Assembly (NCBI GenBank): GCA_963692865.2 | Contig: OY843592.1 | Coordinates: 1,472,001-1,536,000 of the forward strand | Source: a bacterium | Lineage (GTDB): Bacteria > UBA8248 | Length of the DNA: 64,000 nucleotides | Reading direction: 5' to 3' | In this document: positions 8,802-64,000 of the stretch, piece by piece | Layout of the letters: every line of letters starts with the position of its first letter | Numbering within the stretch: position 1 is the stretch's first letter | The notes under the pieces: generated by a model | What the model was told of the DNA's origin: nothing | Databases searched by the model: none | Seen by the model: the letters and a program-made list of their open reading frames with translations, nothing else | Translations under genes and position numbers: made by a program

Positions 8802-10112
8802 ATGGCCGGTAGCGACAGACGGGTCGTGATCACCGGATACGGGGCGATGACGCCCCTGGGCGGGGACGTCGCCTCCACGTTCGACGCCGCGCGCGAGGGA
8901 CGCTCGGGAATCGACGTGGTTCGGCGCTTCGATCCCGAAAAACTGCCCTGCCGGATCGCCGGCGAAGTGGACGACGAGTGGATCGCCTCACAGGAGAACA
9001 GAGGCGGGCGCAGGCTCGACAAGTTCTCCACACGCGGCGTGCGCATGATGCGCGCCGCCGTATCCCAGGCGGCGCGGGCGGCGCGCCTGGGTGAAGTTTC
9101 AGAGCGCAAGCGAATCGGCGTCGCGCTCGGCTCCCACGGCGACCACCCCGACCTCGAAGAGTTGCTCCGCATATTTCCCTACTGGAAACCCGCGGACGGC
9201 GACCCCTTACAGGGCGGATGGGACATCGAGGGACTCAAGAGCCGCGGCGCCTATGATCTGATGACGTTTTTCCGAAGAAAGTCCGACGTAGCGACATCGG
9301 TCGTGGCTCTCGATTTCGATTGCCGGGGGCCCATGGTCTCCATATGCTCGGCCTGCGCGGCGGGAGCGCAGGCGATCGGCGAGTCGGTGCGCTTGATCCG
9401 CGACAAGAAGGCCGACGTCATGGTGGCGGGAGGCTGCGAGGCGCCCATCACGTACGTGGGGTTTCTTGGGTTCGTCCTGCTCACCGCGCTCGTGGAGCGG
9501 TACGAGACCCCGCAGAGCGCGTCCCGGCCCTTCGACAGGAGGCGAAACGGTTTCGTGATGTCAGAAGGCGCCGGCGCGATGATTCTCGAGAGCTACGCGC
9601 ACGCGCGCGCGCGGGGGGCCGGGATTCTCGGCGAAGTGCTCGGCTACGGCGATTCATCGGATGCGTTTCGCATCACCGACATGCACCCGAGGGGGCTGGG
9701 CGCGGTGTTCGCCATGAAAAAGGCGATAGAAGACGCCCGGCTCGCGCCCGATCAGGTCGAGTATATCAACGCGCACGGCACCTCGACACCCAAGAACGAT
9801 TCCACCGAGACGAGGGCCATCAAGGAGGTGTTCGGCGCTCACGCGGAGAAACTACCCGTCAGTTCCAACAAGTCCATGATCGGCCACACCATCGGCGCGG
9901 CGGGAGCCGTCGAGGCGATTCTCGCCGTGGAGGGGATGCGCCGCTCGGAGATACTGCCGACCATCAACTACCAGAACCGCGACCCCAAATGCGACCTCGA
10001 CTACGTGCCCAACGAGACGAGGGTGCAGGCCCACCGCGTGGCTCTATCCAACAGTTTCGGTTTCGGCGGGCAGAACGCCTGCCTTTGTCTGGGCGGCCCC
10101 GAACTCGCGTGA
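8802..10112 (+). CDS. Beta-ketoacyl-ACP synthase, FabF-like, intact Cys-His-His triad
   Basis: SACAAG, NAHGTST, GHTIGAAG, SNSFGFGG. Confidence 0.93.
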   Translation: MAGSDRRVVITGYGAMTPLGGDVASTFDAAREGRSGIDVVRRFDPEKLPCRIAGEVDDEWIASQENRGGRRLDKFSTRGVRMMRAAVSQAARAARLGEVSERKRIGVALGSHGDHPDLEELLRIFPYWKPADGDPLQGGWDIEGLKSRGAYDLMTFFRRKSDVATSVVALDFDCRGPMVSICSACAAGAQAIGESVRLIRDKKADVMVAGGCEAPITYVGFLGFVLLTALVERYETPQSASRPFDRRRNGFVMSEGAGAMILESYAHARARGAGILGEVLGYGDSSDAFRITDMHPRGLGAVFAMKKAIEDARLAPDQVEYINAHGTSTPKNDSTETRAIKEVFGAHAEKLPVSSNKSMIGHTIGAAGAVEAILAVEGMRRSEILPTINYQNRDPKCDLDYVPNETRVQAHRVALSNSFGFGGQNACLCLGGPELA

Positions 10113-11296
10113 ATTTTCCACCCGTTCCGATCACCGGCGTCGGCCTGGTAACGGCGGCGGGGGGAGGCGTCGAATCCGCCTGGGAGGCCCTTTGTGCGGG
10201 CCGCTCTCTTCTCGCTACGGACTCAGACCCCGAACTTGCCGGTTTCCCACCCATCGAAACGGCGCGGTGCGCGCGAATCGACCCCGAATCCATCGGGGCG
10301 GAACGCCGCGCGGCGAGAATCATGGGCCATCATACCCACATGCTCCTGGCGGCGGTTCACGATTTGATGGCCGACGCCCCTGCCCCGGAGATCGCGGAAG
10401 AAGATGTCGCCTTTTTCGCTGGGATGGACTCGGTCGATCCGGAAAAAGATGATTTGATCGGCGGGGTGAGGGAAACGGGTGGCCGGGTGGATCTCGCGCA
10501 TTTCTTCAGTGAGGGGATGAACGCCATCCCTCCGCTTTGGCCGCTGGGCCTGTTGAACGCGATAGGCTTCAGCCAGACGGCGATTCAGCACAGATGGCGC
10601 GGCGAGAACGCCGTTTTCAGCGCGGGCCCGGAGGCAACTGCGCGCGCCCTCTGCGAGGCGGCGGACTCGGTCGGATCAGGCAAGGCGAGGATCGCCCTCG
10701 CCGCCGGCGTGAGCGGGGTGATTTCCGCAAGAATGCTGGCCCGCGCCATGCGGCGGGGCGCGTGGCCTCAAGCGGGGGGGCTGGGCGAGGGAGCGGGTGT
10801 GATTCGCCTCGATAAGCCTCGGGACGCCGATCCATCGAAAATACTCTGCTGGCTCAAGGGGTATTCTTCCGTTCGCGCGCTCGAAAAAGGAGGTGGTCTC
10901 GCGCAGGCGATTCGAGATTCGGCCCGGGGTGCGCTCGCATGCGCCGGTCTCGCACCCGAACGGGTCGACCTCCTCGTGGTTCATGGAGAAGGAGAGCCTC
11001 GGGCGGACAATGCGGAGGAGGAAGCGATTCGCGCCCTTTTTGAAGATCACAAGCCCTGGGGGCTTGCGACGAAGGGCGTATTCGGCCACCTTTGGGGGGG
11101 AAGCCCGGCGCTGGACTTGATCATGGCGATGAAAGCCTTGTCCGAAGGCGCGGCGCCTCCGTCTCCTGCAGCGGAGAGTGGATTCTTCCGCGATGCGACG
11201 GATGGCTCCGGACGGGGTGAACTCAAAAACGCGCTCGTGCTTCTGCAGGGTTTCGACGGCGAGTGCGCTGCCCTTGTGGTGGGGAAACACGCTTGA
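10109..11296 (+). CDS. Ketosynthase-like protein lacking catalytic Cys (chain-length-factor-like)
   Basis: GTG start overlaps upstream TGA; ITGVGLVT, GEGAG, KGVFGH; FSAGPEA at the Cys position. Confidence 0.8.
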   Translation: MNFPPVPITGVGLVTAAGGGVESAWEALCAGRSLLATDSDPELAGFPPIETARCARIDPESIGAERRAARIMGHHTHMLLAAVHDLMADAPAPEIAEEDVAFFAGMDSVDPEKDDLIGGVRETGGRVDLAHFFSEGMNAIPPLWPLGLLNAIGFSQTAIQHRWRGENAVFSAGPEATARALCEAADSVGSGKARIALAAGVSGVISARMLARAMRRGAWPQAGGLGEGAGVIRLDKPRDADPSKILCWLKGYSSVRALEKGGGLAQAIRDSARGALACAGLAPERVDLLVVHGEGEPRADNAEEEAIRALFEDHKPWGLATKGVFGHLWGGSPALDLIMAMKALSEGAAPPSPAAESGFFRDATDGSGRGELKNALVLLQGFDGECAALVVGKHA

Positions 11297-11311
11297 CGGG
11301 AGAACAGGCAA

Positions 11312-11764
11312 TTGCGGTTTCTATATTTCGACCGGATCAAGGAGGCTGTGCGCGGCGAGCGCATCGTGGGCGTCAAGACGTTTCCGCTCACCGAAGCGTA
11401 CCTGAACGCCCATTTCAGCCGCGTCCCCCGCGTGCCCGGCTCGATCCTCATCGAGGCGATGGCGCAGATTACGGGGTGGCTCGTGATCTACACGTATGAT
11501 TTCAAGACCTCGTGCGTCATCTCGCTCATCGACGACGTGGAGGTGGCGAGCGACCTGCGTCCGGGCATTACCCTGGAAATTCATGGCGAGATAATCGACA
11601 CGAACGAACGGGCGAGCCTGTGCCGCGCGCGAATCGAAAAGGACGGCGTTTCCGTGGCGCGGGCCGAGCGGTTCGTGTACCCCCACTTTCCCAACGACGA
11701 TCCCGAGGGACTGAAAGAACGCTTCAGGCGCTACGGCTGGCTGGCGTTCGAGGAGACGGCATGA
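11312..11764 (+). CDS. FabZ/FabA-like hotdog dehydratase
   Basis: MRFLYFDRI, HF...PGSILIEAMAQ. Confidence 0.9.
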   Translation: MRFLYFDRIKEAVRGERIVGVKTFPLTEAYLNAHFSRVPRVPGSILIEAMAQITGWLVIYTYDFKTSCVISLIDDVEVASDLRPGITLEIHGEIIDTNERASLCRARIEKDGVSVARAERFVYPHFPNDDPEGLKERFRRYGWLAFEETA

Positions 11765-13026
11765 GCGCGCAGGTATTCATCACCGGACTCGGCATGGTGA
11801 CCTCCCTGGGCGCCGACGTGGAAACCTGCTGGCAGCGGGCGCTGGCCGGCGAATCGGGCCTCTCGCCGATCACGTCTTTCGACGCGAAGGAACTGCCGGT
11901 CGCCGGAGCGGGAGAGGTTTCGGAAGAGACGCTCCGCGCCATACGGGAGAGGCTGCCCGAGGAGTATACGGGCGAGGGGGAGCGCAGGGTGTTGTTCGCG
12001 CTCGACGCCGCGCAGAACGCGATGACGGACGCCGGGATGCGCCCCGGCGATTACGCGCCCGAACGCGCGGGCGTGGTGATGGGAACCGGACTGAGCAGCT
12101 ACCGGCTGGAGGATTTCATTACCTGGGCGGACCCGGAAAACGGCTTCGACGCCGCGCGCTTCGCCAAAGAGCTTGAGATGACGCACGCCTCCGGCTACTT
12201 CAACAACCCGCCCGAGCGGGCGACGTCGAAGATTGCGGAATGGTTCGAACTCGCAGGCCCCTCGGGAACCATCACCTCCGCCTGCGCGGCGGCGGGGCAG
12301 GCGATAGGACTCGGGATGCGCATGATCCGCAGGGGCGAGGCGGACGTGGTGCTGTGCGGCGGGGCCGATTCGATGATCCACCCCGTCGGGATGGCCATAT
12401 TCCTCCTGCTGGGCGCGGCGTCCAGGTCGAAAGCCCCCGTTTGCCGCCCGTTCGACAGGAAACGCTCGGGTCTCGCCGTGGGCGAAGGGGCGGGCGTGGC
12501 GGTGCTGGAATCGGAAGACCACGCGCGCGCGCGCGGCGTTGTGCCCTACGCCGCCCTCTCGGGCTACGGCGCTAGCATGGACTCCCATCAGGTCACGGCT
12601 CCGCACCCGGCGGGCCGGGGCGCGGTGCGCTCGATGCGCGAGGCGATGGAGGATGCGGGCCTCGCGCCCGGCGACGTCGCTTACGTCAACGCGCACGGCA
12701 CGGGCACGAAACTGAACGATCCGGTCGAAACCAGGGCGATTCGGGAGGTGTTCGGCGCGCGGGCGGATGCGCTGGCGGTGAGTTCGTCCAAATCCATGAT
12801 CGGGCACCTGATCGCCGCCTGCGGCGCGCCCGAATTCATCTTCACCGCCTTGAGCGTGGCGCGCGACATCGTGCATCCTACGACGAACCTGGAGAACCCG
12901 GACCCGAGGTGCGATCTCGACTACGTGGCCGGGGGGGCGCGGGAGATGCCCGTGCCCGCCGCCATCACGAATTCTTTTGGCTTCGGCGGACAAAACGCCA
13001 CCTTGCTCGTGAGAAAGGCGGCCTAG
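11761..13026 (+). CDS. Beta-ketoacyl-ACP synthase, FabF-like, intact triad
   Basis: ATG overlaps upstream TGA; SACAAAG, NAHGTGT, GHLIAA, NSFGFGG. Confidence 0.93.
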   Translation: MSAQVFITGLGMVTSLGADVETCWQRALAGESGLSPITSFDAKELPVAGAGEVSEETLRAIRERLPEEYTGEGERRVLFALDAAQNAMTDAGMRPGDYAPERAGVVMGTGLSSYRLEDFITWADPENGFDAARFAKELEMTHASGYFNNPPERATSKIAEWFELAGPSGTITSACAAAGQAIGLGMRMIRRGEADVVLCGGADSMIHPVGMAIFLLLGAASRSKAPVCRPFDRKRSGLAVGEGAGVAVLESEDHARARGVVPYAALSGYGASMDSHQVTAPHPAGRGAVRSMREAMEDAGLAPGDVAYVNAHGTGTKLNDPVETRAIREVFGARADALAVSSSKSMIGHLIAACGAPEFIFTALSVARDIVHPTTNLENPDPRCDLDYVAGGAREMPVPAAITNSFGFGGQNATLLVRKAA

Positions 13027-37547: not shown

Positions 37548-38600
37548 CTACTGTTTTCCCGAGGAGAGGAATTTCGACACCGAGTCCGCCGTCCATTCCA
37601 CGAGCGAGACGGCGCGATCGTAGCGCATGCGCTTGGGGCCGATGATGCCGATGCTGCCCAGCGGGCGGTCGTCCATATAGTAGCGCTGGGCGACGACGCT
37701 GCAATCCTTCATCTCCTCGAAATCGTTCTCCGAGCCGATGAGAATCGTGATGTCCGAGGATCCGAGGCATTTGTCCAGCAGGCGCACGAGTTTTTCCCTC
37801 TCCTCGAACGTGCGGTAGAGAGTCTGGAGCTTTTCCGCGTTGGTGGCGAAATCGGGCTGTGAGAACACGCGCGAGGCCCCTTCCACGAAGACGGATTCCT
37901 GCGCGGCTTCGCTTTCCGAGAGCGCCTCCTTGCTGAGTTTGAGGGCTTGTTGGTAGAGGGTGTCGAGGCCCTCCCGCGCACGGGTCATTTTCTGGATGAT
38001 TTGCTCGCGCACCTCTCTCAAGGCGAGGCCGCTGAATTCTTCGTTCAGCAGGTTGGATATCCGGTTCAACTCCTCCTGGCTGATGGGGGTCTCCATGGGG
38101 ATGACGCGGTTTTGCACCACCCCGCTCATGGAGACGATGACGGCCAGGGTCTTTTCCTCCGACATCTTCACGAAGTTGATGTGCTTGAAGTGGAGCTGCT
38201 CCCCTGCGGGCAGAAGAACGAGCCCCGCCGTGTTGGTGAGTTCGGAGAGCACGCGCGTCGCCTGGGCGAGCACCTGTTCGATTTGGGCGGCCTGCGCGGA
38301 AGCGCCTAAGCGCATGGATTCCTGCTCCTCGCTCGTGAGGGTGTGCGAGTCCATGAGGTCGTCGACGAAAAAGCGGTAGCCCAGGTCGGTGGGGAGCCTG
38401 CCGGAGGAGACGTGGGGCTTGGTGAGGAAGCCCGCGTCGGCCAGGTCGCTCATGATGTTGCGGATGGTTGCGGGGCTCAGGGCGATGTCCGCGTGTTTCG
38501 AGAGCGTGCGGCTACCTACGGGTTCGCCCGTATCCACGAAAATGTTGATGATGGCGCGCAGGATTTCCCGGTTTCTCTGTGCAAGTTCCAGGGCGTCCAT
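37548..38600 (-). CDS. hrcA: Heat-inducible transcription repressor HrcA
   Basis: EPVGSRTL, SPATIRN, PHVSSGRLPTDLGYR, IGPKRMRY. Confidence 0.97.
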   Translation of the reverse strand: MDALELAQRNREILRAIINIFVDTGEPVGSRTLSKHADIALSPATIRNIMSDLADAGFLTKPHVSSGRLPTDLGYRFFVDDLMDSHTLTSEEQESMRLGASAQAAQIEQVLAQATRVLSELTNTAGLVLLPAGEQLHFKHINFVKMSEEKTLAVIVSMSGVVQNRVIPMETPISQEELNRISNLLNEEFSGLALREVREQIIQKMTRAREGLDTLYQQALKLSKEALSESEAAQESVFVEGASRVFSQPDFATNAEKLQTLYRTFEEREKLVRLLDKCLGSSDITILIGSENDFEEMKDCSVVAQRYYMDDRPLGSIGIIGPKRMRYDRAVSLVEWTADSVSKFLSSGKQ

Positions 38601-38644
38601 TTCGCGAGTCTCCCGGTGAGGCGTCATTCGCGCCGGATTCTGGT

Positions 38645-38671
38645 GTGGCACTCCGGCGCATGGGGTGCTAA
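38645..38671 (-). promoter_or_regulatory. CIRCE operator
   Basis: Minus strand TTAGCACCC-N9-GAGTGCCAC upstream of hrcA. Confidence 0.9.
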
Positions 38672-38678
38672 TTTGTGC

Positions 38679-38707
38679 AAGATATGAGGGGATTTTTCCC
38701 CTGTCAA
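38679..38707 (-). promoter_or_regulatory. Sigma-70 promoter of hrcA
   Basis: TTGACA-17 bp-TATCTT immediately upstream of CIRCE. Confidence 0.82.
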
Positions 38708-38849
38708 GCACCTGGAGCCGGGGGTAAGGGAGTGTTTTCGGAGCCTGAATCTTGAAAACCGCATGAAAAGAACCCCCATCACTTAAAAGATGATTTAGAT
38801 CGTATCGAAGTTGAACGGAAAAACTTTTTACCTAAAGCGGTGGATTCTA

Positions 38850-39899
38850 ATGATTACCGATATTTTCGCGGATCGTTATTCCAATACGAATTTATGGGAT
38901 GAATTTGGAGAGGCGCAAAGACGGTTAATTGTGCAAATATTTCGCCTTCTTTCTGAACAGATTTGTCCTTACTGGGTAAATGTCAAAGAAAGTGAACCTG
39001 GAAAAATGTTCTGGACTGACATTCACAGCAGATTGTCAATGGAATTAGGCCTCAAGTCACTCTCGGCCCTTGCCTATGCGTACTCTACTAATTTGGGAGG
39101 GAAGCCACATACGGCATCTGGTACATGGCCGTTAATTACTGTCTGTGAAAATTGGATGCTAAAGGAGTTTGATCATTCCGTTTCTGCTGACCGGTTTATA
39201 AAGGAGCGTATTAGCTTGGTAGAGATTGGTTTTCGCAAGCGCGAGGAAGAAATCGACGCTGATAATGCCAAATTACCAGAGAGAATTTTGGCGGCGAAAA
39301 GACCGAGGCCAAGACGATCCGGCATACGCATTCCGGGTGATCCTGTGAAAGGGGTTATGGCGCGTAATGCTTCGATCAACAAGGCATTTCAAGAAGCTGT
39401 CAATGAACTGAATGCGCGTTTCAATCAGGCTGGATGCGCTCTTCATTATCACAATGGTTTTATTCAGTTGACAACTGATGAACTCACTCTGTGCCAAGTT
39501 GAAGAACCTTTTTGGGCACTTGTGGCCGACTCTGAATGGGAGAATGTCGATTTTGATATGAAAGAATCTTTGGACCTCCGCGATTCTAATAAAGGTGACC
39601 CCGCATTTCTCGCTGCCCGTGCACTCGAAAGCACGCTCAAAATCGTGTCAAATAAATTAGGTTTAACGGACGGCCGCGAAAAAGGTGCTCATAACTACAT
39701 CGAAAAACTTGCCTCAAAGGAAACGGGTTTTCTTGCGGATTGGGAATCTGAAGCGCTTAAAGGGTTTTTCACTAATATCCGTAATCCGTTTGGTCATGGA
39801 GCAGGGAATGCATCGAGGCCTGAACTGACGCAACAACAGACTGATTGGGCAATCGAAACATGCATGATTTGGATAAAAAGTATCATCCGTAGGCTCTGA
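38850..39899 (+). CDS. AbiJ-NTD4-like protein with a C-terminal HEPN-like domain (putative anti-phage)
   Basis: MITDIFADRY start, KERISLVEIGFR, RNPFGH (Rx4H); markedly AT-rich. Confidence 0.72.
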   Translation: MITDIFADRYSNTNLWDEFGEAQRRLIVQIFRLLSEQICPYWVNVKESEPGKMFWTDIHSRLSMELGLKSLSALAYAYSTNLGGKPHTASGTWPLITVCENWMLKEFDHSVSADRFIKERISLVEIGFRKREEEIDADNAKLPERILAAKRPRPRRSGIRIPGDPVKGVMARNASINKAFQEAVNELNARFNQAGCALHYHNGFIQLTTDELTLCQVEEPFWALVADSEWENVDFDMKESLDLRDSNKGDPAFLAARALESTLKIVSNKLGLTDGREKGAHNYIEKLASKETGFLADWESEALKGFFTNIRNPFGHGAGNASRPELTQQQTDWAIETCMIWIKSIIRRL

Positions 39900-40066
39900 T
39901 AAAAGTATGCTCGCGTACTATTATTCATTCGCCGCTGGATAACAGTAAAACCATCTCCACCACCTTGCTTTTACTACTGCGTCGCCATTTGTAAATGAGT
40001 TAGAATGAAATCTGAACTCCGGTGTCCGGCGCCGGGAGTGATGCGAAAGCCGCCGATTTTCGAGGG

Positions 40067-42301
40067 ATGCCGATGCCGAACGCATGGACGAGAGCCTTTC
40101 AGGCGGTTTTCAGGCGATGGCTCGGGCGGCGGACGCCGCCGCTCTCCGGACCGGCCCATGAAACCGGGGATTCGGCGCGCTCGCGCATCGCCCGCTCGCG
40201 CCGGGCGAACCGCAAGTTCCAGTACTGCACGATAGGCGCGGCGTTCGTTTTGATGGTGATATTGAGTCTCCTCTCCTATCAGCTTTACGCCGACACCAAG
40301 GCCGAGACCGAGGAGAGGTCCAACCGCCGCCAGCTTCTTCTCGTGGAGCAGGCGGGCGACCGGATCGCCTCGTTCCTGGAGGCGCTCACGGCCTCTTTGC
40401 GCTACAGCGCGGGGTTTCTGCGCACCATCGAACCCGATCATCCAGGGCGTATGGCGGTGATGATGGGTCTGTACGAAAGGCTGGGCGGAAGGTTTCGCGT
40501 GAGCGAACTGGGCTACTTGCAGCGAGCGGGTGAGCAGGCCGCCGCCATTCCCAGGGAATATCTCGAAAAACTGGCGAACTGCTTTTGGCCGCAGGGTGCC
40601 TGCATCCTCGTGGTTCGCGATGAAGCCCAAAGGGTCTCCTCCTTGTTCGCGGCGGCGCCGGTGGCGCCCAAAGGCGATGGAACGGAAGCACGAGAGGCGC
40701 AGCGAAAGCGCGACTGGCTCTACGCGCGAATTTCCATGGCGGATCTGGCGCGCGCCTTCGTCGAGCCCGTTCAATCGGGTGGCCGGGAGCGGGCGTGGCT
40801 CGTGGACGGCGAGGGCAGAATTATCCTCCCTCCGGGCATCCCCCCGCTGGAAGGGGTTCAATTGTCCACCCTCGCGCGCGAGTTGGGGGATGAAAGACTG
40901 AAAAAACTCGCCGGCCGCATGAAGAAAGAAGTGAATGGTTTCGACTGGCACCTCGACTTGAGGCCCGGGAAGAAAGAAAAGCGCATGCGCTACCTGACGG
41001 CTTTCAGCAACTTCCCCGTCGGACATGAGAAGTGGACTTTCGCTCTCACGGCGCCGTCTACCGAATTCGTCGGATTGATCGGACGCCTGTTCCGGAAGGG
41101 TCTGCTCCTGACGGCTTTCGGGTTCGTCGCCCTGGTCCTGGCCGCTCTTTTGATACTCGACCGTGAGCGCAGGCGCATACGGGCCGAAGACAGAATCCAC
41201 TGGTCCGAGCAGGTGCTGGAGAGCAACAGGCGGCTTCAGGCGCTGTTCGACGGCATCACGGACGCCATCGGCATTCTGGACGAGGATTTCCGCATACGGA
41301 TGCTCAATCGCTCGATGGGCAGGCTCTTCGGACGAGAGACGTCCGATTTGCTGGATCAGAAATGGGAGATATCGCTGCTCGGCGCCGTGCCGGAGCCCTT
41401 TGTCGAGCGCGCCATCGTGGGCGACACGTTCGCGACCGGCGAGCCGGGTTTTTTCGAAAAGTCGATTTCGTGGGAAGATGGGCGGCAGATGGATATGGAA
41501 TACTATACCTATCCGATTCTCGACGCCTCGGGAGCAACGCTCCAGGTGATTTTGTATTTGAAGGACGTGACCGGGCGCAAGGCGCTCGAAAAGGAAGTTC
41601 TCCAGAGCGAGAGGCTCTCGATCGTCGGCAAGATGAGCGAGCAGGTGGCGCATTCCATCCGCAACCCCCTATCGGCCATCAACCTGAACGCGGAATTGCT
41701 CGGCGATGAGTTGTCGCAATTCAAGGAGGAGGATACCTCCGAGGCATGGACGCTGCTCAAATCCGTGCGGGCGGAGGTGGATATCCTCAGGCAGGTGACG
41801 GCCGATTATCTCAAGTTCGTGCGGATGCCCAGTCTGGAGAGAGCGCCGGTCGCCTGCAACGAGATGATAGCGGATTTGCTGGACCTGCACGCGGAAGTGG
41901 CGGCGAGCAGAAAAATCCGGGTCGAAAAGGAGTTTGAAATGACCATCCCCGAGGTTGTCCTGGACGAAACGCAAATACGCGTCGCGGTTCAGAACCTCAT
42001 CCTGAACGGCTTCGACGCGATGCCCGACGGCGGTCGTCTCGTGGTGAAGACCGAACTGGAGAATCAACACCTCGCCATCCGTATATCGGACAGCGGGGCG
42101 GGCATCAGCCTCGAGGATCAGGCTTCTTTGTTCACGCCGTTTTTCACGACGAAGGCGAACGGAACCGGCCTCGGCCTCGTGCTGAGCCGCCAGATCATCA
42201 CCGAGCACGGGGGGAGCATCCATTTCGAGAGCGAGGAGGGGGCGGGCGCCACTTTCGTCGTCGAACTCCCGCTCGCCGTTGCCCAGGAGGCGAAGGCATG
42301 A
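40067..42301 (+). CDS. PAS-domain membrane sensor histidine kinase
   Basis: Two TM segments, PAS, HSIRNPL H-box, N/G1/F/G2 boxes; start uncertain. Confidence 0.92.
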   Translation: MPMPNAWTRAFQAVFRRWLGRRTPPLSGPAHETGDSARSRIARSRRANRKFQYCTIGAAFVLMVILSLLSYQLYADTKAETEERSNRRQLLLVEQAGDRIASFLEALTASLRYSAGFLRTIEPDHPGRMAVMMGLYERLGGRFRVSELGYLQRAGEQAAAIPREYLEKLANCFWPQGACILVVRDEAQRVSSLFAAAPVAPKGDGTEAREAQRKRDWLYARISMADLARAFVEPVQSGGRERAWLVDGEGRIILPPGIPPLEGVQLSTLARELGDERLKKLAGRMKKEVNGFDWHLDLRPGKKEKRMRYLTAFSNFPVGHEKWTFALTAPSTEFVGLIGRLFRKGLLLTAFGFVALVLAALLILDRERRRIRAEDRIHWSEQVLESNRRLQALFDGITDAIGILDEDFRIRMLNRSMGRLFGRETSDLLDQKWEISLLGAVPEPFVERAIVGDTFATGEPGFFEKSISWEDGRQMDMEYYTYPILDASGATLQVILYLKDVTGRKALEKEVLQSERLSIVGKMSEQVAHSIRNPLSAINLNAELLGDELSQFKEEDTSEAWTLLKSVRAEVDILRQVTADYLKFVRMPSLERAPVACNEMIADLLDLHAEVAASRKIRVEKEFEMTIPEVVLDETQIRVAVQNLILNGFDAMPDGGRLVVKTELENQHLAIRISDSGAGISLEDQASLFTPFFTTKANGTGLGLVLSRQIITEHGGSIHFESEEGAGATFVVELPLAVAQEAKA

Positions 42302-56572: not shown

Positions 56573-57115
56573 TTACTTCTTCTTTTTCTTCTTGCGGAAC
56601 GACCTGTGGCACGCGCCGCACTGCCTGCCGATGAGGCCCACCGCCTTCCTGATGGCCGCGGGGCCGCCCTTGTAGTGGATTTGCGCGAGGGCGGCGGCGT
56701 TCGCGGCGAGGCCGTCCGCGATGAGGCCGAACTTCGCCCTGTCCTTCCAGATGGCGGGGGACGACGTCGTCTTGCCCGCCAGGGTGTTCTTCCTGAACGC
56801 CTTCTTGATCCTGGACGCCTTCTTGTACATGCCGCCCGCGGCCTGGCGCACCTGCTCCTCGACCACCCGGCCGCTGCCCTGTTTCATCGCGGTTCTGATG
56901 CGCTTCATGTCGGCGCCGATGCCGCGCATGAGTTTCCGGCGCGCCGCGACGGCGGCGTCCGCGCCGCCCTTCGTCATCTTTTTCTCGCCCGCCGCCTTCC
57001 CGGCCTTCATGGCCGCCTTCTTCTGGCCCGTCATCCTGCCGTCCGCGCAGCCCGCTGCGAGCGCGCCCGCCGCGGCCAGGACGGCCAGGCTCCTGAATAC
57101 GTCTCGTTTTTTCAT
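56573..57115 (-). CDS. Cytochrome c-prime (class II) lipoprotein
   Basis: LAAGC lipobox, R..LM, AIWKD..KF, C-terminal CGACH. Confidence 0.85.
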   Translation of the reverse strand: MKKRDVFRSLAVLAAAGALAAGCADGRMTGQKKAAMKAGKAAGEKKMTKGGADAAVAARRKLMRGIGADMKRIRTAMKQGSGRVVEEQVRQAAGGMYKKASRIKKAFRKNTLAGKTTSSPAIWKDRAKFGLIADGLAANAAALAQIHYKGGPAAIRKAVGLIGRQCGACHRSFRKKKKKK

Positions 57116-57335
57116 GACCGGATTTCCCCCACGAAATCAGAAACGAAAAAGACAATCAGGCGGAACTGTATGAAACCCCCTCTCGGCGCCCCCGCGCGTG
57201 AAAACGAACCATGGGCGGTCGTCCGCCGGCCTTCATCGCGTATGGGTTCATGTTAGCCGAAAAGCGGTCCGGCGGCCAGCCCCGGAAAACGGGGGGGGGG
57301 TGGTTTTCAGGCCGGGAACAGGGGGGCTGGTTTCC

Positions 57336-58157
57336 GTAGGTGACAACCCCTCCTCGGGGTTGTCCCACGCATACCATGCGGCCCGTGTCGGGCGGCGAAA
57401 AAATCAGGGCCGCATGATATGTCTGACCTACGGAGCGTCTCGCGTTTGCGGAGGGGAGACCGCCCTTCGATACGCCGCCTCCGGCGTCGTCCTGCTACAC
57501 GCCTCATTCGGGTGTCGGTGTAGGGGCCGCATACCATGCGGCCCGTTCAGGTCGGGCTCCGCGGTCGCGTCGTGGAAACGTCTTCAGGAATTGCGTCGCA
57601 TGGGCGAGATTGTAATCGTCGGCGGCGAAAACCACTCTGCGCGGGTCGCATGATATGTCCGACCTGCAATACCATTTTGATTGACGGCTGTAGGGGCCGC
57701 ATATTATGCGGCCCGTCGCCGTTCGATATGCGGGTCGCATGGTATGCGACCCCTACAACAGAAACGGCAATGCCGCCGGAATGGCGGCGAACGATTCGAT
57801 GATCGGGATCCCCTCCCGCGCCAATCGGGTTTTCACCCGTAGGTCGGACATGCCATGCGGCCCATGACGGGACGGCGAAAAAACCGGGCCGCATGATATG
57901 TCAGACATATATGTCTGACCTACGGTGGGAGCCCGACCGGCGGCGGGGTTTTCAACGGCCCCGTGCGTGGTTCCTGTGCGCCCCTCGAATGACGACTGTA
58001 GGGGCCGCATACCATGCGGCCCGTCGCCGTTCGATATGCGGGTCGCGTCTGGGCGGCGAAAAAGGCCGGGTCGCATGGTATGTCGGACATATATGTCCGA
58101 CCTACAATACCGTCTTGAATGACGACCGCAGGGGCGGACGCGCGGGTCCGCCCCTGC
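57336..58157. repeat. REP doublet (REPIN) array 1
   Basis: Repeated GTAG-GGGCCGCATNNNATGCGGCCC, GGGTCGCATNNNATGCGACCC-CTAC and GTCrGACATATATGTCyGAC hairpins. Confidence 0.9.
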
Positions 58158-58384
58158 GAAACCTGAACCGAAGGTCGCCCGCGTTCCACAACCCTCCGGG
58201 CGGCGTTGATCCCGGCGCCCGTTTGTGAAACCTTGGGATATCCTGAAGGGTTCGTGGCGGCTCACCCGCAGGCCCGGCGCAGGCCGGTTGTCGGGGAGGC
58301 ATGAGAGACGCCGCGAAGTTCGCGCGTGAAAACCTGATTTCATTCGCCGCCGGGCGGGCGGCCCCATTTTCGAAAGGAGCGGAC

Positions 58385-58678
58385 ATGAGCGCATACGTGG
58401 TCGGACACATCACCGTGAAGGACGAGGAGGGCTTCGGCAACTACGCCGAGCAGGGGCTCGCCATCGTCGCCTCCGTCGGGGGCGAGGTGGCGGCGAGCGG
58501 ACAGCTCGTGAAGGTGCTCACCGGCGCGCACGACAGGCGGATGTTCGTCCTCCTCAAGTTCCCCGACCAGGCGGCGGTGGAGAAGTGGTATTACTCCGAC
58601 GCCTACCAGGCCCTCATCCCCGGCCGCAACCAGGCGGCGGACATCACGTTCATCTCCTACGACGAGCCGGAGGAGTAG
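58385..58678 (+). CDS. DUF1330 domain protein
   Basis: RBS AGGAG; MSAYVV, GG, FPD...WY.S.AYQ...R. Confidence 0.9.
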   Translation: MSAYVVGHITVKDEEGFGNYAEQGLAIVASVGGEVAASGQLVKVLTGAHDRRMFVLLKFPDQAAVEKWYYSDAYQALIPGRNQAADITFISYDEPEE

Positions 58679-58706
58679 GCGTCCGGGGAGCGGGCGGGAT
58701 GGTCGC

Positions 58707-59557
58707 GATCCCCTCCCGCGCCAATCGGGTTTTCACCCGTAGGTCGGACATATATGTCCGACATACCATGCGGCCCGTTGTCGTTCGGTATGCGGCCCGT
58801 CGCCGTTCGATACGCGGCCCGCGTCGGGCGAAAAAAACCGGGTCGCATGATATGCGACCCCTACCACGGAAACGGCGATGCCGCCGGAATGACGGCGAAC
58901 GATTCGGTGATCGGGATCCCCTCCCGCGCCAATCGGGTTTTCGCCCGCAGGTCGGACATATATGTCCGACATACCATGCGGCCCGTCGCCGTTCGATATG
59001 CGGCCCGCGTCGGGCGAAAAAAACCGGGTCGCATGGTATGCGACCCCTACAACAGAAACGGCGATGCCGCCGGAATGACGGCGAACGATTCGGTGATCGG
59101 GATCCCCTCCCGCGCCAATCGGGTTTTCGCCCGCAGGTCGGACATATATGTCTGACCTACGGTGGGATCCCGACCGGCGGCGGGGTTTTCAACGGCCCCG
59201 CGCGTGGTTCCTGTGCGCCCCTCGAATGACGACTGTAGGGGCCGCATATCATGCGGCCCGTGTCCGGGCGGCGCGGTTTTTGTAGGTGACAACCCCTCCT
59301 CGGGGTTGTCCCACGCATACCATGCGGCCCGTCGCCGTTCGATATGCGGGTCGCATGGTATGCGACCCCTACAACAGAAACGGCAATGCCGCCGGAATGA
59401 CGGCGAACGATTCGATGATCGGGATCCCCTCCCGCGCCAATCGGGTTTTCACCCGTAGGGGCCGCATACCATGCGGCCCGTTGCCGGAGGGGCGAAAAGG
59501 CCGGGTCGCGAAAAAAACCGGGTCGCATGATATGTCAGACATATATGTCCGACCTAC
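58707..59557. repeat. REP doublet array 2 with 186-208 bp tandem units
   Basis: GATCCCCTCCCGCGCCAATCGGGTTTTC at 58707, 58915, 59101 and about 59422, each leading into a G(T/C)AG hairpin. Confidence 0.9.
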
Positions 59558-59609
59558 GGGATCATCGCGTTGCCGGACGGGCGCAGGAGAAAGGGTTGCG
59601 CTTTTGGAA

Positions 59610-60143
59610 ATGAAAAAACGAAAAGCGAACAGGTTGCGCGATCATGATTATTCCGGGAGAGGATGCTATTTCGTAACCATCTGCACGCTGAAACACGCCC
59701 GGTGTTTCGGCGGGATCACGAACGAAAGGATGCGGTTAAACGAAATCGGCGTGATCGCGCACCGGCATTGGCGGGAAATTCCGAATTGTTTTCCGAATGC
59801 GAGTCTCGATGAATTCATCATGATGCCGAACCACATTCATGGCGTTTTGTTCATCGGCGATAAAACCCGCTCCACCCGCTCCGCGCGGGCCGCATGTATG
59901 AATCCCCTGCAATCGCAGCAAGAAGACATTGACCGCTCGAAGATGTATTTGTCGAAAATCATCCAGGGATTCAAATCCTCCGTCACCCGTACGGTCGGAA
60001 AACGCCGGGACGACCATGCTTTCGGCTGGCAGCGATCATTCTACGACCACGTTATCCGGGACGATGCGAATCTGAACCGCATCCGGGAATACGTCCGGAA
60101 CAACCCCCTGAAATGGGCGTTCGATAAATACAATCCGGAATGA
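59610..60143 (+). CDS. REP-associated tyrosine transposase (RAYT, Y1 HUH)
   Basis: RLRDHDYS, YFVTICT, MPNHIHG (HUH), FKS, WQRSFYDHVIR, YVRNNP. Confidence 0.93.
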   Translation: MKKRKANRLRDHDYSGRGCYFVTICTLKHARCFGGITNERMRLNEIGVIAHRHWREIPNCFPNASLDEFIMMPNHIHGVLFIGDKTRSTRSARAACMNPLQSQQEDIDRSKMYLSKIIQGFKSSVTRTVGKRRDDHAFGWQRSFYDHVIRDDANLNRIREYVRNNPLKWAFDKYNPE

Positions 60144-60148
60144 CGACC

Positions 60149-60579
60149 GCAGGGGCGACATGTATGCGTCCCCTGCAAAAACGCGTAATGGTCGCGTAGG
60201 GGCCGCATACCATGCGGCCCGCGTTCGGGCGGCGAAAAAACCGGGTCGCATGATATGTCTGACCTGCAAAAGCGCGCAATGGTCGCGTAGGGGCCGCATA
60301 GTATGCGGCCCGTTGTCGTTCGGTATGCGGCCCGCGTCGGGCGAAAAAAACCGGGTCGCATGGTATGCGACCCCTACGGGCGGCGTTCGGGTGTCGGTGT
60401 AGGGGCCGCATATCATGCGGCCCGTGTCGGGGCGGGGGGGTTGCAACGGCCCCGCGCGCCCCCTCGAATGACGACTGTAGGTCGGACATATATGTCCGAC
60501 ATAGTATGCGGCCCGTCGCCGTTCGATATGCGGCCCGCGTCGGGCGAAAAAACCGGGTCGCATGGTATGCGACCCCTAC
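60149..60579. repeat. REP doublet array 3
   Basis: Same hairpin families as arrays 1 and 2. Confidence 0.9.
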
Positions 60580-60625
60580 AATCGAATCCTGATCGACCCG
60601 CGGCGCGCCTCTCGCGCGGCCGCCG

Positions 60626-61612
60626 TCACGGGCCGTAGCGCAGCCGCGCCACCGCGCCCCGCTGGGCGAGCTGGCCCTGCGCGTAGCGCCCCGGCATGGA
60701 CGGCGAGCGCCAGCGGCCGGCGAGCTGCATCTCGACCAGCGACGCCCCCGCGCTCGCCAGGCTCTGCGCGCTGCCCACGCGCAGGCTGTGCCCGCTGACG
60801 CGCCCCTCCACGCCCGCCTCCCGGGCGCGGCGGATGATGATGCGCCGGACGCTCCTCTCCGTCAGGCGCCCCGCGCTCACCCGGCCCGACCTGTGGACGG
60901 CCCGGAACAGCGGCCCCTCCGCCAGGGCGGCGGCCAGCAGCCACGCCCGGACGCGCGCCACGGTCGGCCCGCCCAGGAACTGCGCGGCGCCCCCGCCCTC
61001 CTGGTCGGTCTTCGAGCGCCGCACCAGCGCCGTCTTCTCGTCCAGGTCCACGTCGCCCACGTCGAGCGCCGATATCTCCGACACCCGGAGCAGCGCGTCG
61101 CTCGCCACCGCCACGATGGCCGCGTCGCGCAGCCCGGCCAGGCCCCCCGCGCGCTCGGCCATCGCCGCCGCCCGGTCCGCCTGCTCCCAGCGCACCCCCG
61201 CCACCTGCCCGCGGCCGCGCTCGGCGGCCATCCGCCTGAACCCGGCGAGAACCCGCTCCGCCGCCGGGCCCACCGGAGAGGGCCGGCCCCGGAGCCTGGC
61301 CCGGAAGCGCAGCGCCGCGACCGCCATGGCGGCGCAGGCCGCGGAGAGCCCCGCCTCGTAGAGGTCCCCCAGGTAGGCCGCCACCCCGGCGTCGGTCTCG
61401 GGCCGCCCCGAACGCGCGAACCCCCGGAGCGCCGCCTCGTAGGCCCGCCGCGTGTTGCGCGCCATCGAGGCCTCCGCCAGGTCCGCGGCCGCGCCGGCCG
61501 GGCGGGCCAGGGCCTGCGCCCTCGCCGAAGCGGCGTCCCGTGCCGGGTCGGGTGGTGTCGCCCCCGTGGTCATGGCGAGAAGCCAACCTTCCGGGTCCGT
61601 AGCTGTTTCCAT
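60626..61612 (-). CDS. Cre-like tyrosine recombinase
   Basis: NTRRAY, LRDAA, LRVSE, RSKTDQ, SGHSLRVGSA, GRW, RY (R-K-H-R-W-Y set); start at 61612 or 61573. Confidence 0.92.
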   Translation of the reverse strand: METATDPEGWLLAMTTGATPPDPARDAASARAQALARPAGAAADLAEASMARNTRRAYEAALRGFARSGRPETDAGVAAYLGDLYEAGLSAACAAMAVAALRFRARLRGRPSPVGPAAERVLAGFRRMAAERGRGQVAGVRWEQADRAAAMAERAGGLAGLRDAAIVAVASDALLRVSEISALDVGDVDLDEKTALVRRSKTDQEGGGAAQFLGGPTVARVRAWLLAAALAEGPLFRAVHRSGRVSAGRLTERSVRRIIIRRAREAGVEGRVSGHSLRVGSAQSLASAGASLVEMQLAGRWRSPSMPGRYAQGQLAQRGAVARLRYGP

Positions 61613-61747
61613 CGCCTGGTGTCGTTCAGGCGCCTCGTGGATTACCGGGTATGATAGACCATGGCGGGGATGGGCGATAGCGGGGAATTCCCGGAAAAAA
61701 AGCCGTCTTCGCAGATGGAGATCGAAGCGGGGCCGTGGATATTGGAT

Positions 61748-61937
61748 TCTGATAATTATTGTTACGGGACGCCGGAAACCCCGTTCTCCGCCGTGAGGCT
61801 CGTTCCGGGGCGCACACGGACTTTGAATGAGCGGAAAAAGACGCAAAACGGCGCAAAAAAATCCCTCGGAGACTTCAAAATCGCGCTTGACATGTTCTTG
61901 AGAAGTGATATATCGTCTGATAACAATAATTAGCGGC
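61748..61937. other. Candidate invertible segment bounded by inverted recombination-site-like sequences
   Basis: TAATTATTGTTA at 61753-61764 and its exact reverse complement at 61921-61932, with TCTGATAA-type arms. Confidence 0.62.
61887..61916 (+). promoter_or_regulatory. Putative sigma-70 promoter facing the lipoprotein gene
   Basis: TTGACA-18 bp-TATCGT inside the inverted sites. Confidence 0.65.
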
Positions 61938-62203
61938 GGGCAGATTTTATGCGAGGCAGCCGAAAGATATGCAGCTTCTGGAGGGCCGGAAAAGGCGTGG
62001 ACATGCCGCAAGAGTTCGCGTCCCGCGGAAAGCGCCGCTACCGCCCCGAACATGAGTCGTTAAATCCAAATCCGCCGTATTTCAAGTTGCTGTGAAAATA
62101 ACCGATTTGTAAAGGCCCGTAAAAGGAGGAAAGGAGGTTCATCGGAGAAAGCCGGAAATTCACGGAAAATCCCTTTTTCTATGTTTTCAGGAGGATTCAC
62201 TCA

Positions 62204-64000
62204 ATGACGTGGAGAAATAAACCAATTCACAAGCTGTACGCTTTCGCGGTGGCGGCGGTCTTCGCGCTGACGCTGGCGGGCTGCGGCGGCGGCGGTGGAA
62301 GCGCCTCGCCTCCTCCGGGCCCGACGCCGATTGAAAGCGCCAAACTGCGTGTGCAGGCTCTTTACGACGCGGCGAAGAAAGCAGCGGCGGACGCGCAGAC
62401 GGAACTCGATGGCTTGGATGCCAAGGCGTTTGCTGCTCAGAGCGCTTATGCGGCGGCCCTGGATGCGGCTCGGGCGGCTCAGCAGGCGGCCGACGCTGCG
62501 GGCGACGCGAATAGCGTGGCCCAGGGTGCGAGCGAACTCTCCGTGGTGGAGGCGCAGGAGAAGGTCGCTACGACCGCAAAAGAGAGGGCCGACGCTGCGA
62601 AGGCTGATACCATGAAGCATGCCAAAGCAGTTGGCGACGCTCATACAACGTACATGGCGGCTGTGGATGCCGGTGTAAAAGCGGCGAACAAGGCGGCTGT
62701 GGACGCTAAAGCGGATGTGACTACGTTGCAAAAAGAGCTCGATGCCTTGGAGCCGGAACAAAAGGCGGCCGGCGCCGCTGCCTACGAGAATGCCATGGAT
62801 CAGTTGGAGGCTGCCAAAGCGGCGGCGGCGGCGGCTCAGCAGGCGGCGGACGCGGCGGATGCGGCGTCCAAAACAACCCCTCCCGACAAGGCCCAGGTGG
62901 AAGCGAATCTGGCTCTGGCGAAAGCAGAGCGGGATAAGGCCTCTGATGCGCTCGCGGCCGGGCGGACCGCTATCGGTATCGTGATAGCGAGTTATCACGG
63001 GGACCGGAGAACGAAGGCTATAGCTGCGGCGAAGCTTGCGCTGGAAACGGCGAAAACAGCGAAGACCGGGGCGGTGAGTAAATTGGCCGAGCTCATCGCG
63101 TACAGCAAGACATTTGGCACCGATGACGAAGAAGTAGTCGAGCCTACGAAGCAGCAGGTGTCGGATGCCACGGAAGAGAAGAACAAGGCCGTCCAGGCTG
63201 AGGCGAATGCGATGGCCGCGGTCCAAAAGGCCGAGGCTTGCGGCTCTACTGACTACAAATGTGCAGAAGGCGCTAAGGAGGAGGCCGAGACGGCGCTTGA
63301 TGCCGCGGAGAAGGCGGCGAAGGCGATCACCGATGCAATAGCGGCTCTGGACGCTCGTGTGGTTGTGGTAAACAAAAGGATCGAAGATACGGGCGAGCTG
63401 AATAAAGCTGGCACAGCCGCCGACACCGCCGCGAAAGACGCCGAAGCCAAAGCGAAAACGGCCGAAGAGAATGCGAAAAAGGTCGCAGATCTCACATCGA
63501 GCAGTTCCCCGGGGGCTATAGCGGCCAAAAATGCGGCGGATGCAGCAAGAGCCGCTGCGAACAGGGCCAAAGCGGCGGCGGACAAGGTTAAGGACGCCGT
63601 GATGAAGGGCACGGACAACAGCAAGGACAGGTTGGACCCGGTGAAGAGAGGCGAACATCTCGCAACAGCGAAGAGCGAGCTGGCCAAGGTCGAGGAAGAA
63701 CAGGCCAAGGTCGTAGCCCAGTTGGCCATAGTCGATAACGAGCTCGCGCTTGCGGATTCGAGGGATCAACAGCGAAGGCTCGCCGCCGCGCGGACAGACG
63801 CGAAGACGTACGCGGATATGGCGAAAGGCCACTACGATTCGGCGATGAGTAAGGCGACGCAGGCCAGGGCGGAGGCCGTCAAAGCCAGGGACGCCGCGAA
63901 CAAGGCCAAGGCCGCCAGGACGGATTACGCCAACGCGGACAAGGAGGCCAAGAAAGCGGAGGATGCCGCCACGGCCGCCGAGAAGGCGCGTGATGCCGCG
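62204..64000 (+). CDS. Large Ala-rich coiled-coil lipoprotein, truncated by the window end
   Basis: AGGAGG RBS; MTWRNKPIHKLYAFAVAAVFALTLAG-C lipobox, GGGGGS/Pro linker; no stop seen in 599 codons; absent from the ORF track. Confidence 0.9.
   Translation, partial: MTWRNKPIHKLYAFAVAAVFALTLAGCGGGGGSASPPPGPTPIESAKLRVQALYDAAKKAAADAQTELDGLDAKAFAAQSAYAAALDAARAAQQAADAAGDANSVAQGASELSVVEAQEKVATTAKERADAAKADTMKHAKAVGDAHTTYMAAVDAGVKAANKAAVDAKADVTTLQKELDALEPEQKAAGAAAYENAMDQLEAAKAAAAAAQQAADAADAASKTTPPDKAQVEANLALAKAERDKASDALAAGRTAIGIVIASYHGDRRTKAIAAAKLALETAKTAKTGAVSKLAELIAYSKTFGTDDEEVVEPTKQQVSDATEEKNKAVQAEANAMAAVQKAEACGSTDYKCAEGAKEEAETALDAAEKAAKAITDAIAALDARVVVVNKRIEDTGELNKAGTAADTAAKDAEAKAKTAEENAKKVADLTSSSSPGAIAAKNAADAARAAANRAKAAADKVKDAVMKGTDNSKDRLDPVKRGEHLATAKSELAKVEEEQAKVVAQLAIVDNELALADSRDQQRRLAAARTDAKTYADMAKGHYDSAMSKATQARAEAVKARDAANKAKAARTDYANADKEAKKAEDAATAAEKARDAA

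Follow-up and report, generated by a model that had tools for sequence, protein, structure and literature searches.

Results

Two divergent genes and a pair of inverted sites

The DNA analysed here is a bacterial stretch of 64,000 nucleotides from contig OY843592.1 (hereafter, the window), which at its far end carries the divergent genes of a Cre-like tyrosine recombinase (P0001) and a large surface lipoprotein (P0002). A preliminary description of the window, made from its sequence alone, had proposed that the gap between these genes holds two recombination sites with identical but inverted cores, and that the DNA between the sites carries a promoter whose inversion switches the lipoprotein on and off. 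The features of this locus are collected in Table 1.

Table 1. Coordinates of the recombinase, the inverted sites, the putative invertible segment and the lipoprotein gene in the window
Feature	Position	Strand	Remarks
Cre-like tyrosine recombinase P0001, putative invertase	60626..61573	-	315 aa; PF00589, Cre is the closest solved relative
Recombinase-proximal site 1: outer arm TCTGATAA, spacer TTATTG, inner arm TTACGGGA	61748..61769		Homologous site in 25 related loci
Interior of the putative invertible segment, 146 bp	61770..61915		Runs opposite (reverse-complemented) to the segment of 24 related loci
Candidate sigma-70-type promoter facing the lipoprotein gene	61887..61916	+	Promoter scan and conservation in aligned loci
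Lipoprotein-proximal site 2: inner arm TCTGATAA, spacer CAATAA (TTATTG reverse-complemented), outer arm TTAGCGGC	61916..61937		Repeat search and homologous sites
5' leader of the lipoprotein gene, 266 nt	61938..62203	+	Leader alignment across 14 loci
Cargo lipoprotein gene, first 599 codons, continuing beyond the window end	62204..64000	+	Translation; lipobox

Our analysis placed both sites at the same coordinates as the preliminary description, with site 2 reading GCCGCTAA-TTATTG-TTATCAGA on the reverse strand. The cores are indeed identical and inverted, and the extended match between the sites reappeared in a repeat search as a 19-nt inverted repeat (61753-61771 and 61914-61932) that is 84% complementary. 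A 12-mer common to both sites, TAATTATTGTTA, had exactly two matches in 64 kb, one on each strand, and no match in any of 100 dinucleotide shuffles (at most one mismatch allowed in each case), and the arm TCTGATAA occurred three times in the window compared with 0.49 expected. The site pair of the window is real and non-random. The third copy of TCTGATAA, at 39895, falls in a low-GC stretch (38000-40000; 0.45-0.55, compared with about 0.64 elsewhere) upstream of an open reading frame (ORF) at 40022-42301; a site scan of the window detected no full recombination site around it.

Paired sites and covarying spacers in related loci

Homologues of the recombinase were plentiful: 2339 of 8000 candidates scored from a protein collection matched P0001 with E ≤0.001, and the 120 homologues listed were 67-88% identical to it, several of them coming from the same contig as the window. 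Scanning species-representative genomes with a 31-sequence recombinase alignment yielded 188 relatives confirmed by tblastn, the best 80 of which form the basis of our locus comparisons. We defined as the close set the 27 loci whose recombinase is at least 66% identical to that of the window (L001-L025, L038 and L053). An inverted site pair lies upstream of the recombinase gene in 25 of these 27, or in 26 loci counting the window; the pairs of L001, L010, L011, L012 and L017, which an exact TAA/TTA filter misses, were found by relaxed scans. The preliminary description had reasoned that homologous loci with one site only would indicate a res or att site or an operator; no such locus was seen, both sites having been kept in the 25 loci. 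The start-to-start distances in the 26 loci were 158, 159, 168 (ten loci), 169 (four), 170 (two) and 179 bp (eight), so that length appears to change in steps of approximately one helical turn.

Both sites of every locus carry the same spacer, and there are 14 distinct spacers among the 26 loci: TTATTG, TTATTA, TTGTTG, TTGATG, TTGACG, TTGCTG, TTACTG, TTGCGA, CTGTTA, AATGCT, TTATCA, TTATGG, CTTGTA and CTTCTAC, the last of which (L011) is 7 nt long and the others 6 nt. In a covariation test the two sites were treated as the arms of a helix, using an alignment (A4) of 22 of the 26 loci that leaves out L016 (misaligned) and L011, L012 and L017 (found later or with a 7-bp spacer). The six spacer columns were complementary in 132 of 132 cells. 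Changes occurred in 36 cells, at five of the six positions, and always affected both sides, never one alone. Arm positions 1, 3, 5, 18, 19 and 22 disagreed between the paired sites in 8-18 of the 22 loci. The resulting covariation score of 0.258 exceeded that of shuffles (0.142; 0 of 500 reached 0.258) and of slid controls (at most 0.125).

The covariation alignment shows the variable 6-bp spacer flanked by invariant TAA/TTA, with a half-site consensus of TTA-T-C-G/A-G-A that is strong over 8 bp and weak at positions 12-14. This agrees with the 8-6-8 geometry originally assigned to the sites: only the six central positions vary across loci, and they are always equal in both sites of one locus. 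Passages of two reports on Cre-type recombination state that the partner sites must have matching spacers (PMC10250229; PMC11260471). A spacer that is variable between loci yet equal within each, combined with tolerance of arm differences, is the signature expected of partner crossover sites.

At L012 (9705-9896) the polarity of the spacer relative to its flanks is opposite to that of other loci, the distal site reading CCATAA and the proximal site TTATGG, and the distal TAA/TTA flanks are degenerate. We also considered, and rejected, spacer avoidance among the paralogues of one genome: by hand count over 23 loci, a spacer was shared by 2 of 24 within-genome pairs (22 of 24 differ) versus 14 of 229 between-genome pairs, with no detectable avoidance.

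The candidate promoter and the two orientations of the segment

Every promoter-like match found by a scan of 61400-62300 lies within the segment, on the + strand. The top match, with 10 of 12 matching positions, was TTGACA (61887-61892)-N18-TATCGT (61911-61916), the promoter that the preliminary description had pointed at the lipoprotein gene. Its direction and rank stand, while its -10 element probably needs correction. TATATC at 61909-61914 offers an alternative -10 with a 16-nt spacer to the -35 and a TG at 61906-61907, and at the position of TATATC the segment alignment places TGT-TATATT in the relatives, which suggests that TATATC, not TATCGT, is the real -10 in the window. In the aligned loci the promoter GCGCTTGACATG-N-TGT-TATATT is conserved and abuts the TCTGATAA arm. 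Phased A-tracts lie upstream of it in the window, at about 61834-61860.

The loci differ in the direction of this promoter, which points at the recombinase gene in 24 loci and at the cargo gene in two, the window and L009. The proximal site of the 24 loci is a near-palindrome, TCYGATAA-spacer-TTATCRGA, with its inner arm abutting the promoter; relative to these, the inner arms and adjacent bases of the window and of L009 are swapped exactly at the spacer. Reverse-complemented, the window segment aligned end to end with 12 homologous segments, and its identity to the segment of L025 was 129/164 in that arrangement versus 88/189 in the same orientation. The second case is a comparison of paralogues within one chromosome: L007 and L009 have the same spacer, TTGACG, and left flanks identical at 192 of 215 positions, and their segments are identical at 164/173 positions when one is reverse-complemented versus 98/192 in the same orientation. 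The majority arrangement, with TCTGATAA next to the proximal site, is also found in the metagenomic homologues P0005, P0006, P0007 and P0009, whose N-termini are over-called and extend across that site.

Both orientations thus exist in nature, among homologous and paralogous loci. The window is nearest to L002, L003 and L025, and L009 is nearest to L007; by these alignments the two are independent inversions with junctions exactly at the spacer. As the window segment is the reverse complement of that in 24 loci, the conserved promoter would face the lipoprotein gene, supporting the assignment of this assembly to the lipoprotein-ON orientation, as first proposed. Two points extend the original proposal: when the segment lies the other way round, its promoter is directed at the recombinase gene, and the locus belongs to a large multi-copy family with varied surface-protein cargo.

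One further idea is kept as no more than a possibility. Stabilisation of the majority state as in a lox66/lox71 product, where a good site is paired with a doubly weak one, fits the subgroup of the window and fails for loci of the L009/L014 type, in which the distal site has a perfect inner arm.

A Cre-type recombinase

P0001 carries the PF00589 domain at residues 134-299 (E 7.7e-17; 62 bits, compared with a Pfam gathering cut-off of 27.1). Seventeen of its 18 sequence matches in the PDB are Cre or Tre, an engineered derivative of Cre, the best being 7rhz_B (E 5e-14, query residues 54-311, 258 residues); the next match outside this group is the XerC-like 4a8e, at E 0.0026. In the PDB sequence alignment R163, K188, H262, R265, W288 and Y297 align with the catalytic residues of Cre, and across 31 homologues H262, R265, W288 and Y297 are invariant and R163 nearly so, findings that uphold the earlier designation of the enzyme as Cre-like. 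No NCBIfam model was matched above its cut-off: P0001 scored 23.2 bits with the FimB/FimE-type invertase model NF007371 (cut-off 222) and 40, 34 and 53 bits with the XerC, XerD and XerA models TIGR02224, TIGR02225 and NF040815 (cut-offs 335, 330 and 220). Judged by similarity over its full length, including the N-terminal domain, and by the Trp at the position of the second His, P0001 is a Cre-type enzyme, and the model scores place it outside the FimB/E and Xer families.

An in-frame ATG at 61612 would lengthen P0001 to 328 aa. The peptide METATDPEGWLLA, encoded in the extension from this upstream ATG, is conserved in homologues and was seen in P0004, P0009 and P0022.

Surface proteins as cargo

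The window lipoprotein P0002 begins with a signal peptide that carries the lipobox LTLAGC (residues 22-27, Cys27) and is followed by an Ala/Lys/Glu-rich region; together with the PF00589 domain of the recombinase, this leaves the divergent gene pair as it was first described. The full-length cargo, P0122, has 1130 aa, is 100% identical over the 599 aa and is encoded on the same 3.94-Mb contig. The divergent gene encoded a lipoprotein with a near-invariant signal peptide and a variable body in 11 of the 13 loci examined first (the other two had no sequence), and a hidden Markov model of the signal peptide identified 16 ORFs, which come from 14 loci and often lie as tandem pairs.

An AF2 model of the C-terminal 200 residues of related lipoproteins (pLDDT 80.7) gave 6cuj (E 4e-5), 3v8u, 9nhq, 5ec6 and 9b3e as its top Foldseek matches, with a probability of 1.0 and TM-scores of 0.38-0.55. 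These matches are barrels of NHBA, TbpB, fHbp, HpuA, LbpB and PmSLP, and the modelled C-terminus of the cargo is, as a fold-level match only, an eight-stranded barrel of the TbpB/fHbp type. Residues 929-1130 of P0122 match the profile of this C-terminal barrel (A2; hhalign, 99.3%, E 2.6e-20). Pfam searches returned no domain in the 599-aa part present in the window, in nine related lipoproteins or in full-length P0122, and the C-terminal domain profile matched nothing among PDB sequences at E ≤1. The slam_lipo model NF041636 reached 19 bits (cut-off 80) in one of nine proteins, and no Slam/DUF560 gene was present among the scanned neighbours of the examined loci, these neighbourhoods not having been searched exhaustively. 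Sub-threshold matches to NF058595 ('invert_tail / lipo-invert C-terminal anchoring domain'; 17-24 bits, cut-off 37) fell at the N-terminal signal peptide (62204-62360 in the window) of the window protein and five of nine relatives; we judged them compositional and did not use them.

The cargo is not always of this kind. Proteins of 1400-1870 aa with cadherin-like, Calx-beta and fn3 domains are encoded at L007, L009 and L016, PKD-collagen proteins at L001, L015 and L018, and PAP2 lipoproteins with a twin-arginine translocation (TAT) signal at L010 and L011. The common denominator, as far as their sequences tell, is a surface or secreted protein.

A tandem array of about 18 copies of the 8-nt unit CCCGCAGA lies between the inverton of L016 and its cargo gene, which encodes a 1871-aa SWM-repeat/Calx-beta protein. 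The array begins about 130 and ends about 270 nt outward from the distal site (locus positions ~9300-9450) and is a possible second, slipped-strand layer of variation.

The leader of the lipoprotein gene

Leaders range from 240 to 550 nt among loci. In 14 loci, namely the window and 13 others (e.g., L025:9377-9486), roughly the final 95 nt (about 62110-62203 in the window) hardly vary and contain two GGAGG motifs and a possible hairpin, GAGAAAG...CTTTTTC; the coding regions of the same loci have diverged. Searching 57000-64000 against Rfam (E ≤1) gave two chance-level matches far from the switch and none in the leader, and the hairpin predicted by RNAalifold in the conserved leader had a compensatory change in 0 of 19 pairs. 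With neither an Rfam family nor covariation, the leader gives no evidence of an RNA element. The promoter scan found no promoter-like site in 61938-62203.

Distribution and neighbouring elements

The relatives are nearly all from metagenome-assembled genomes (MAGs), labelled as more than 10 phylum-level groups, with labels including Nitrospinota, Binatia, Dehalococcoidia, Latescibacterota, Poriferihabitaceae, Tectimicrobiota and Dadabacteria. Several of these lineages are typical of marine sponge microbiomes. Chromosomes may hold several copies, such as the six in OZ241875.1 and the five in OY762824.1. When 72,556 plasmids were searched with the recombinase by tblastn, 41 records matched, and each was less than 60% identical and covered less than 80% of the query. 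The matches listed span about 50% of it (residues 153-314), and no annotated close relative was found among these plasmids.

More distant relatives show other arrangements. At about 50% identity, loci L049, L055, L057-L060, L062, L063, L066-L068, L072, L074, L076-L078 and L080, labelled Pseudomonadales, Azotimanducaceae, Gammaproteobacteria or Spirochaetia, have inverted lox-like sites flanking the whole recombinase gene, at about -200 to -420 and +930 to +1100 relative to the recombinase match, with scored pairs 1149-1357 bp apart (for example GGTTCCGCGAATCCGCTGTT, in five loci of OY762824.1). Such pairs suggest either a cassette that inverts the recombinase gene itself or a small mobile unit.

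Additional genes accompany the recombinase at some loci. The paralogous loci L008 (10971-11690, -) and L014 (10873-11592, -) encode, convergently and just downstream of it, a 239-aa HTH_17 protein (PF12728, E 6e-8) that has no counterpart in the window; Xis/AlpA-like by its domain family, it could be a directionality or regulatory factor. At L021 the inverton recombinase gene is followed directly by a second PF00589 tyrosine recombinase gene (11045-11959, +; 304 aa).

Immediately downstream of the recombinase gene of the window, 57200-60600 is dense in palindromic repeats resembling repetitive extragenic palindromic (REP) elements (with units such as GTAGGGGCCGCATACCATGCGGCCC and GTAGGTCGGACATATATGTCCGAC) and contains 10 direct-repeat families. 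An ORF inside this cluster (59286-60143, +) has a sub-threshold match to an IS200-like Y1 transposase (22.2 bits, cut-off 23), and the region looks like an arrangement of REP elements with a REP-associated tyrosine transposase (REP/RAYT).

Discussion

A probable on/off switch for the lipoprotein

At this locus inverted repeats bound a short segment beside a recombinase gene, and among related loci both orientations are represented, two facing the cargo and 24 the recombinase. We consider it probable that the segment is a phase-variation on/off switch (inverton) for the surface lipoprotein. The adjacent Cre-like enzyme, presumably the invertase, would synapse the two inverted lox-like sites approximately 170 bp apart, and strand exchange within the identical 6-bp spacer TTATTG would flip the 146-bp promoter segment. 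In the orientation of the window the promoter, if active, would read through the lipoprotein-proximal site and the 266-nt leader into the gene of the 1130-aa lipoprotein, placing it in the ON state; a lipoprotein gene with no other promoter is assumed. In the opposite orientation, that of the 24 related loci, the promoter would read into the recombinase gene via a leader of about 190 nt, with the lipoprotein presumably OFF. Flipping would be ongoing within populations, and DNA bending may matter to it, as suggested by the helical-turn spacing and by the phased A-tracts that precede the -35. As a flip to ON would take the promoter away from the recombinase gene, the switch would limit itself. 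Return would then need enzyme from basal expression or from a paralogous recombinase acting in trans; lacking both, the ON state may stabilise itself.

Several observations weigh against such a switch. Just two of the 26 loci are inverted, and these could be rare evolutionary events. A recognisable pair was not found in L022, where the match begins only at query residue 72, or in L024. The arms are strong over about 8 bp and weak to about 14, compared with 13 bp in Cre sites, and the half-sites are less symmetric. The promoter is a consensus match only, and at the -10 the window has a weaker sequence (TATATC or TATCGT) than the relatives (TATATT). Finally, in the orientation of the window the scan of 61400-62300 showed no sigma-70-like promoter on the minus strand that could serve the recombinase, raising the question of how the ON state is left.

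Two of these observations, the single orientation of 24 of 26 assemblies and the lack of a visible recombinase promoter in the window state, would fit a frozen relic: sites that once inverted and no longer switch at a physiologically relevant rate, leaving the promoter fixed for the gene it faces. Against a relic, strict identity of the spacers in each of 26 loci, despite 14 variants, needs ongoing selection for recombination between the paired sites; the catalytic residues are invariant in 31 homologues, and site spacing has been kept in helical-turn steps. The two inverted loci are also phylogenetically independent (the window near L002/L003/L025, L009 near L007). We therefore regard a relic as unlikely.

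Inversion might also be real but serve mainly to control the recombinase itself, or another function, with the lipoprotein transcribed from its own promoter in the leader. This explanation draws on the same majority of 24 of 26 loci in which the promoter faces the recombinase, and in a strongly conserved leader of 240-550 nt a promoter not of the sigma-70 type, or a regulatory RNA, could go unnoticed. The scan of 61938-62203 revealed no promoter-like site, however, and the leader has neither an Rfam family nor covariation. Moreover, unlike cargo genes with unrelated leaders share only the inverton, arguing that the inverton is what they need, and autoregulation as the main role appears quite improbable to us.

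That the sites are operators, res/dif-like resolution sites or att sites, or that the difference in orientation is an assembly artefact, is very improbable: Cre-type enzymes are classically resolvases, and this recombinase family is multi-copy, spread over MAGs of many phyla and in that respect resembles a mobile element, but resolution or excision needs direct repeats and all 26 pairs are inverted, operators need no covarying central bases, a repeat of 12-19 bp is too short to mislead assemblers, and two independent loci show the exact swap of arms at the spacer that site-specific inversion is expected to produce.

A probable family of invertons in uncultured bacteria

With a phase-variation switch as the preferred explanation, the loci compared here form, on sequence evidence, a family of Cre-like invertons that is present in multiple copies and in MAGs of many phyla, whose spacers have diversified naturally and in which recombinase and cargo share a promoter. 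We found no description of a Cre-like inverton family of this type in the full-text literature searched. A broader proposal, which may be correct but which we put forward tentatively, is that the family is a portable toggle-inverton module, spread horizontally among uncultured marine bacteria of many phyla, in which the invertase and a surface-protein gene compete for one promoter to give a self-limiting bistable switch. If so, paralogues such as the six of OZ241875.1, with mostly different spacers, could flip independently, perhaps in trans, without recombining with one another. They would generate combinatorial variation of adhesins and TbpB-like lipoproteins, and the lox-like spacers of the family, at least 14 of them, would make up a natural library of orthogonal sequences.

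Host-associated bacteria classically vary their surface by promoter inversion, and nearly all detailed work on it concerns cultured pathogens and gut commensals; the family described here would provide well-defined invertons in uncultured MAG lineages. Its cargo, TbpB-like lipoproteins and proteins with cadherin, fibronectin and collagen domains, is of the kind thought to mediate contact between symbiont and host, and read mapping could now test directly for heritable surface variation in such symbionts. The family is also a source of compact Cre-type enzymes that use short sites, with numerous spacers that covary in nature, and its circuit, in which one promoter would alternate between recombinase and cargo, is unusual.

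Comparison with known systems

The cargo lipoproteins resemble those of Neisseria and the Pasteurellaceae (NHBA, TbpB, fHbp, HpuA, LbpB and PmSLP) in combining an N-terminal lipobox with a predicted C-terminal beta-barrel, and differ from them in having no PDB or Pfam match at the sequence level and moderate TM-scores (0.38-0.55). The invertons of Bacteroides (Tsr, Mpi and those of PhaseFinder-type surveys) are invertible promoters of surface-protein and polysaccharide loci, present in many copies per genome. Their recombinases belong to a clade different from the one described here. To our knowledge, diversification of spacers between loci has not been reported for them, and we know of no Bacteroides switch that puts the recombinase gene under the invertible promoter.

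Lipoprotein promoters also invert in the mpl family of Mycoplasma penetrans. In Mycoplasma agalactiae, as part of a report on Vpma and Xer1 describes, surface lipoproteins are switched by inversion through a tyrosine recombinase (PMC2268961). The mpl and Vpma systems resemble the present family in their promoter inversion and in lipoproteins whose signal peptide and 5' region are conserved while their bodies vary. Here, in contrast, recombinase and spacer variant are particular to each locus, the cargo has a predicted TbpB-like barrel, and the hosts are GC-rich MAG lineages, some labelled Nitrospinota, Binatia or Dehalococcoidia.

Among Cre/loxP of phage P1, Dre/rox and Vika/vox, the likeness lies in Cre being the closest sequence relative and in a catalytic set with Trp for the second His. 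A Cre-type site has an asymmetric spacer between two inverted arms, and recombination between sites in inverted orientation flips the DNA between them, as set out in passages of PMC10250229 and PMC11260471. Compared with the 34-bp target of Cre (13-8-13), the spacer here is 6 bp (7 in L011) rather than 8, and the sites are thus lox-like without having the same architecture. They occur as natural pairs 158-179 bp apart that flank a promoter, rather than as a single plasmid site, and their role is apparently gene regulation, not resolution of plasmid dimers or circularisation. They would behave as heterospecific lox sites do. For the enzyme itself, Pfam and NCBIfam go no further than a generic integrase assignment.

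The fim switch, in which FimB and FimE act on fimS, is similar in its general design: a short promoter segment bounded by short inverted repeats, an adjoining tyrosine recombinase and ON/OFF control of a surface structure. Recombinase expression in fim depends on the orientation of the switch, a property known as orientational control of FimE. The segment of the present family is 146-157 bp, compared with 314 bp in fim, and its enzyme falls outside the FimB/FimE family. Unlike fim, each switch here has one recombinase, with a promoter that would alternate between the recombinase and its cargo.

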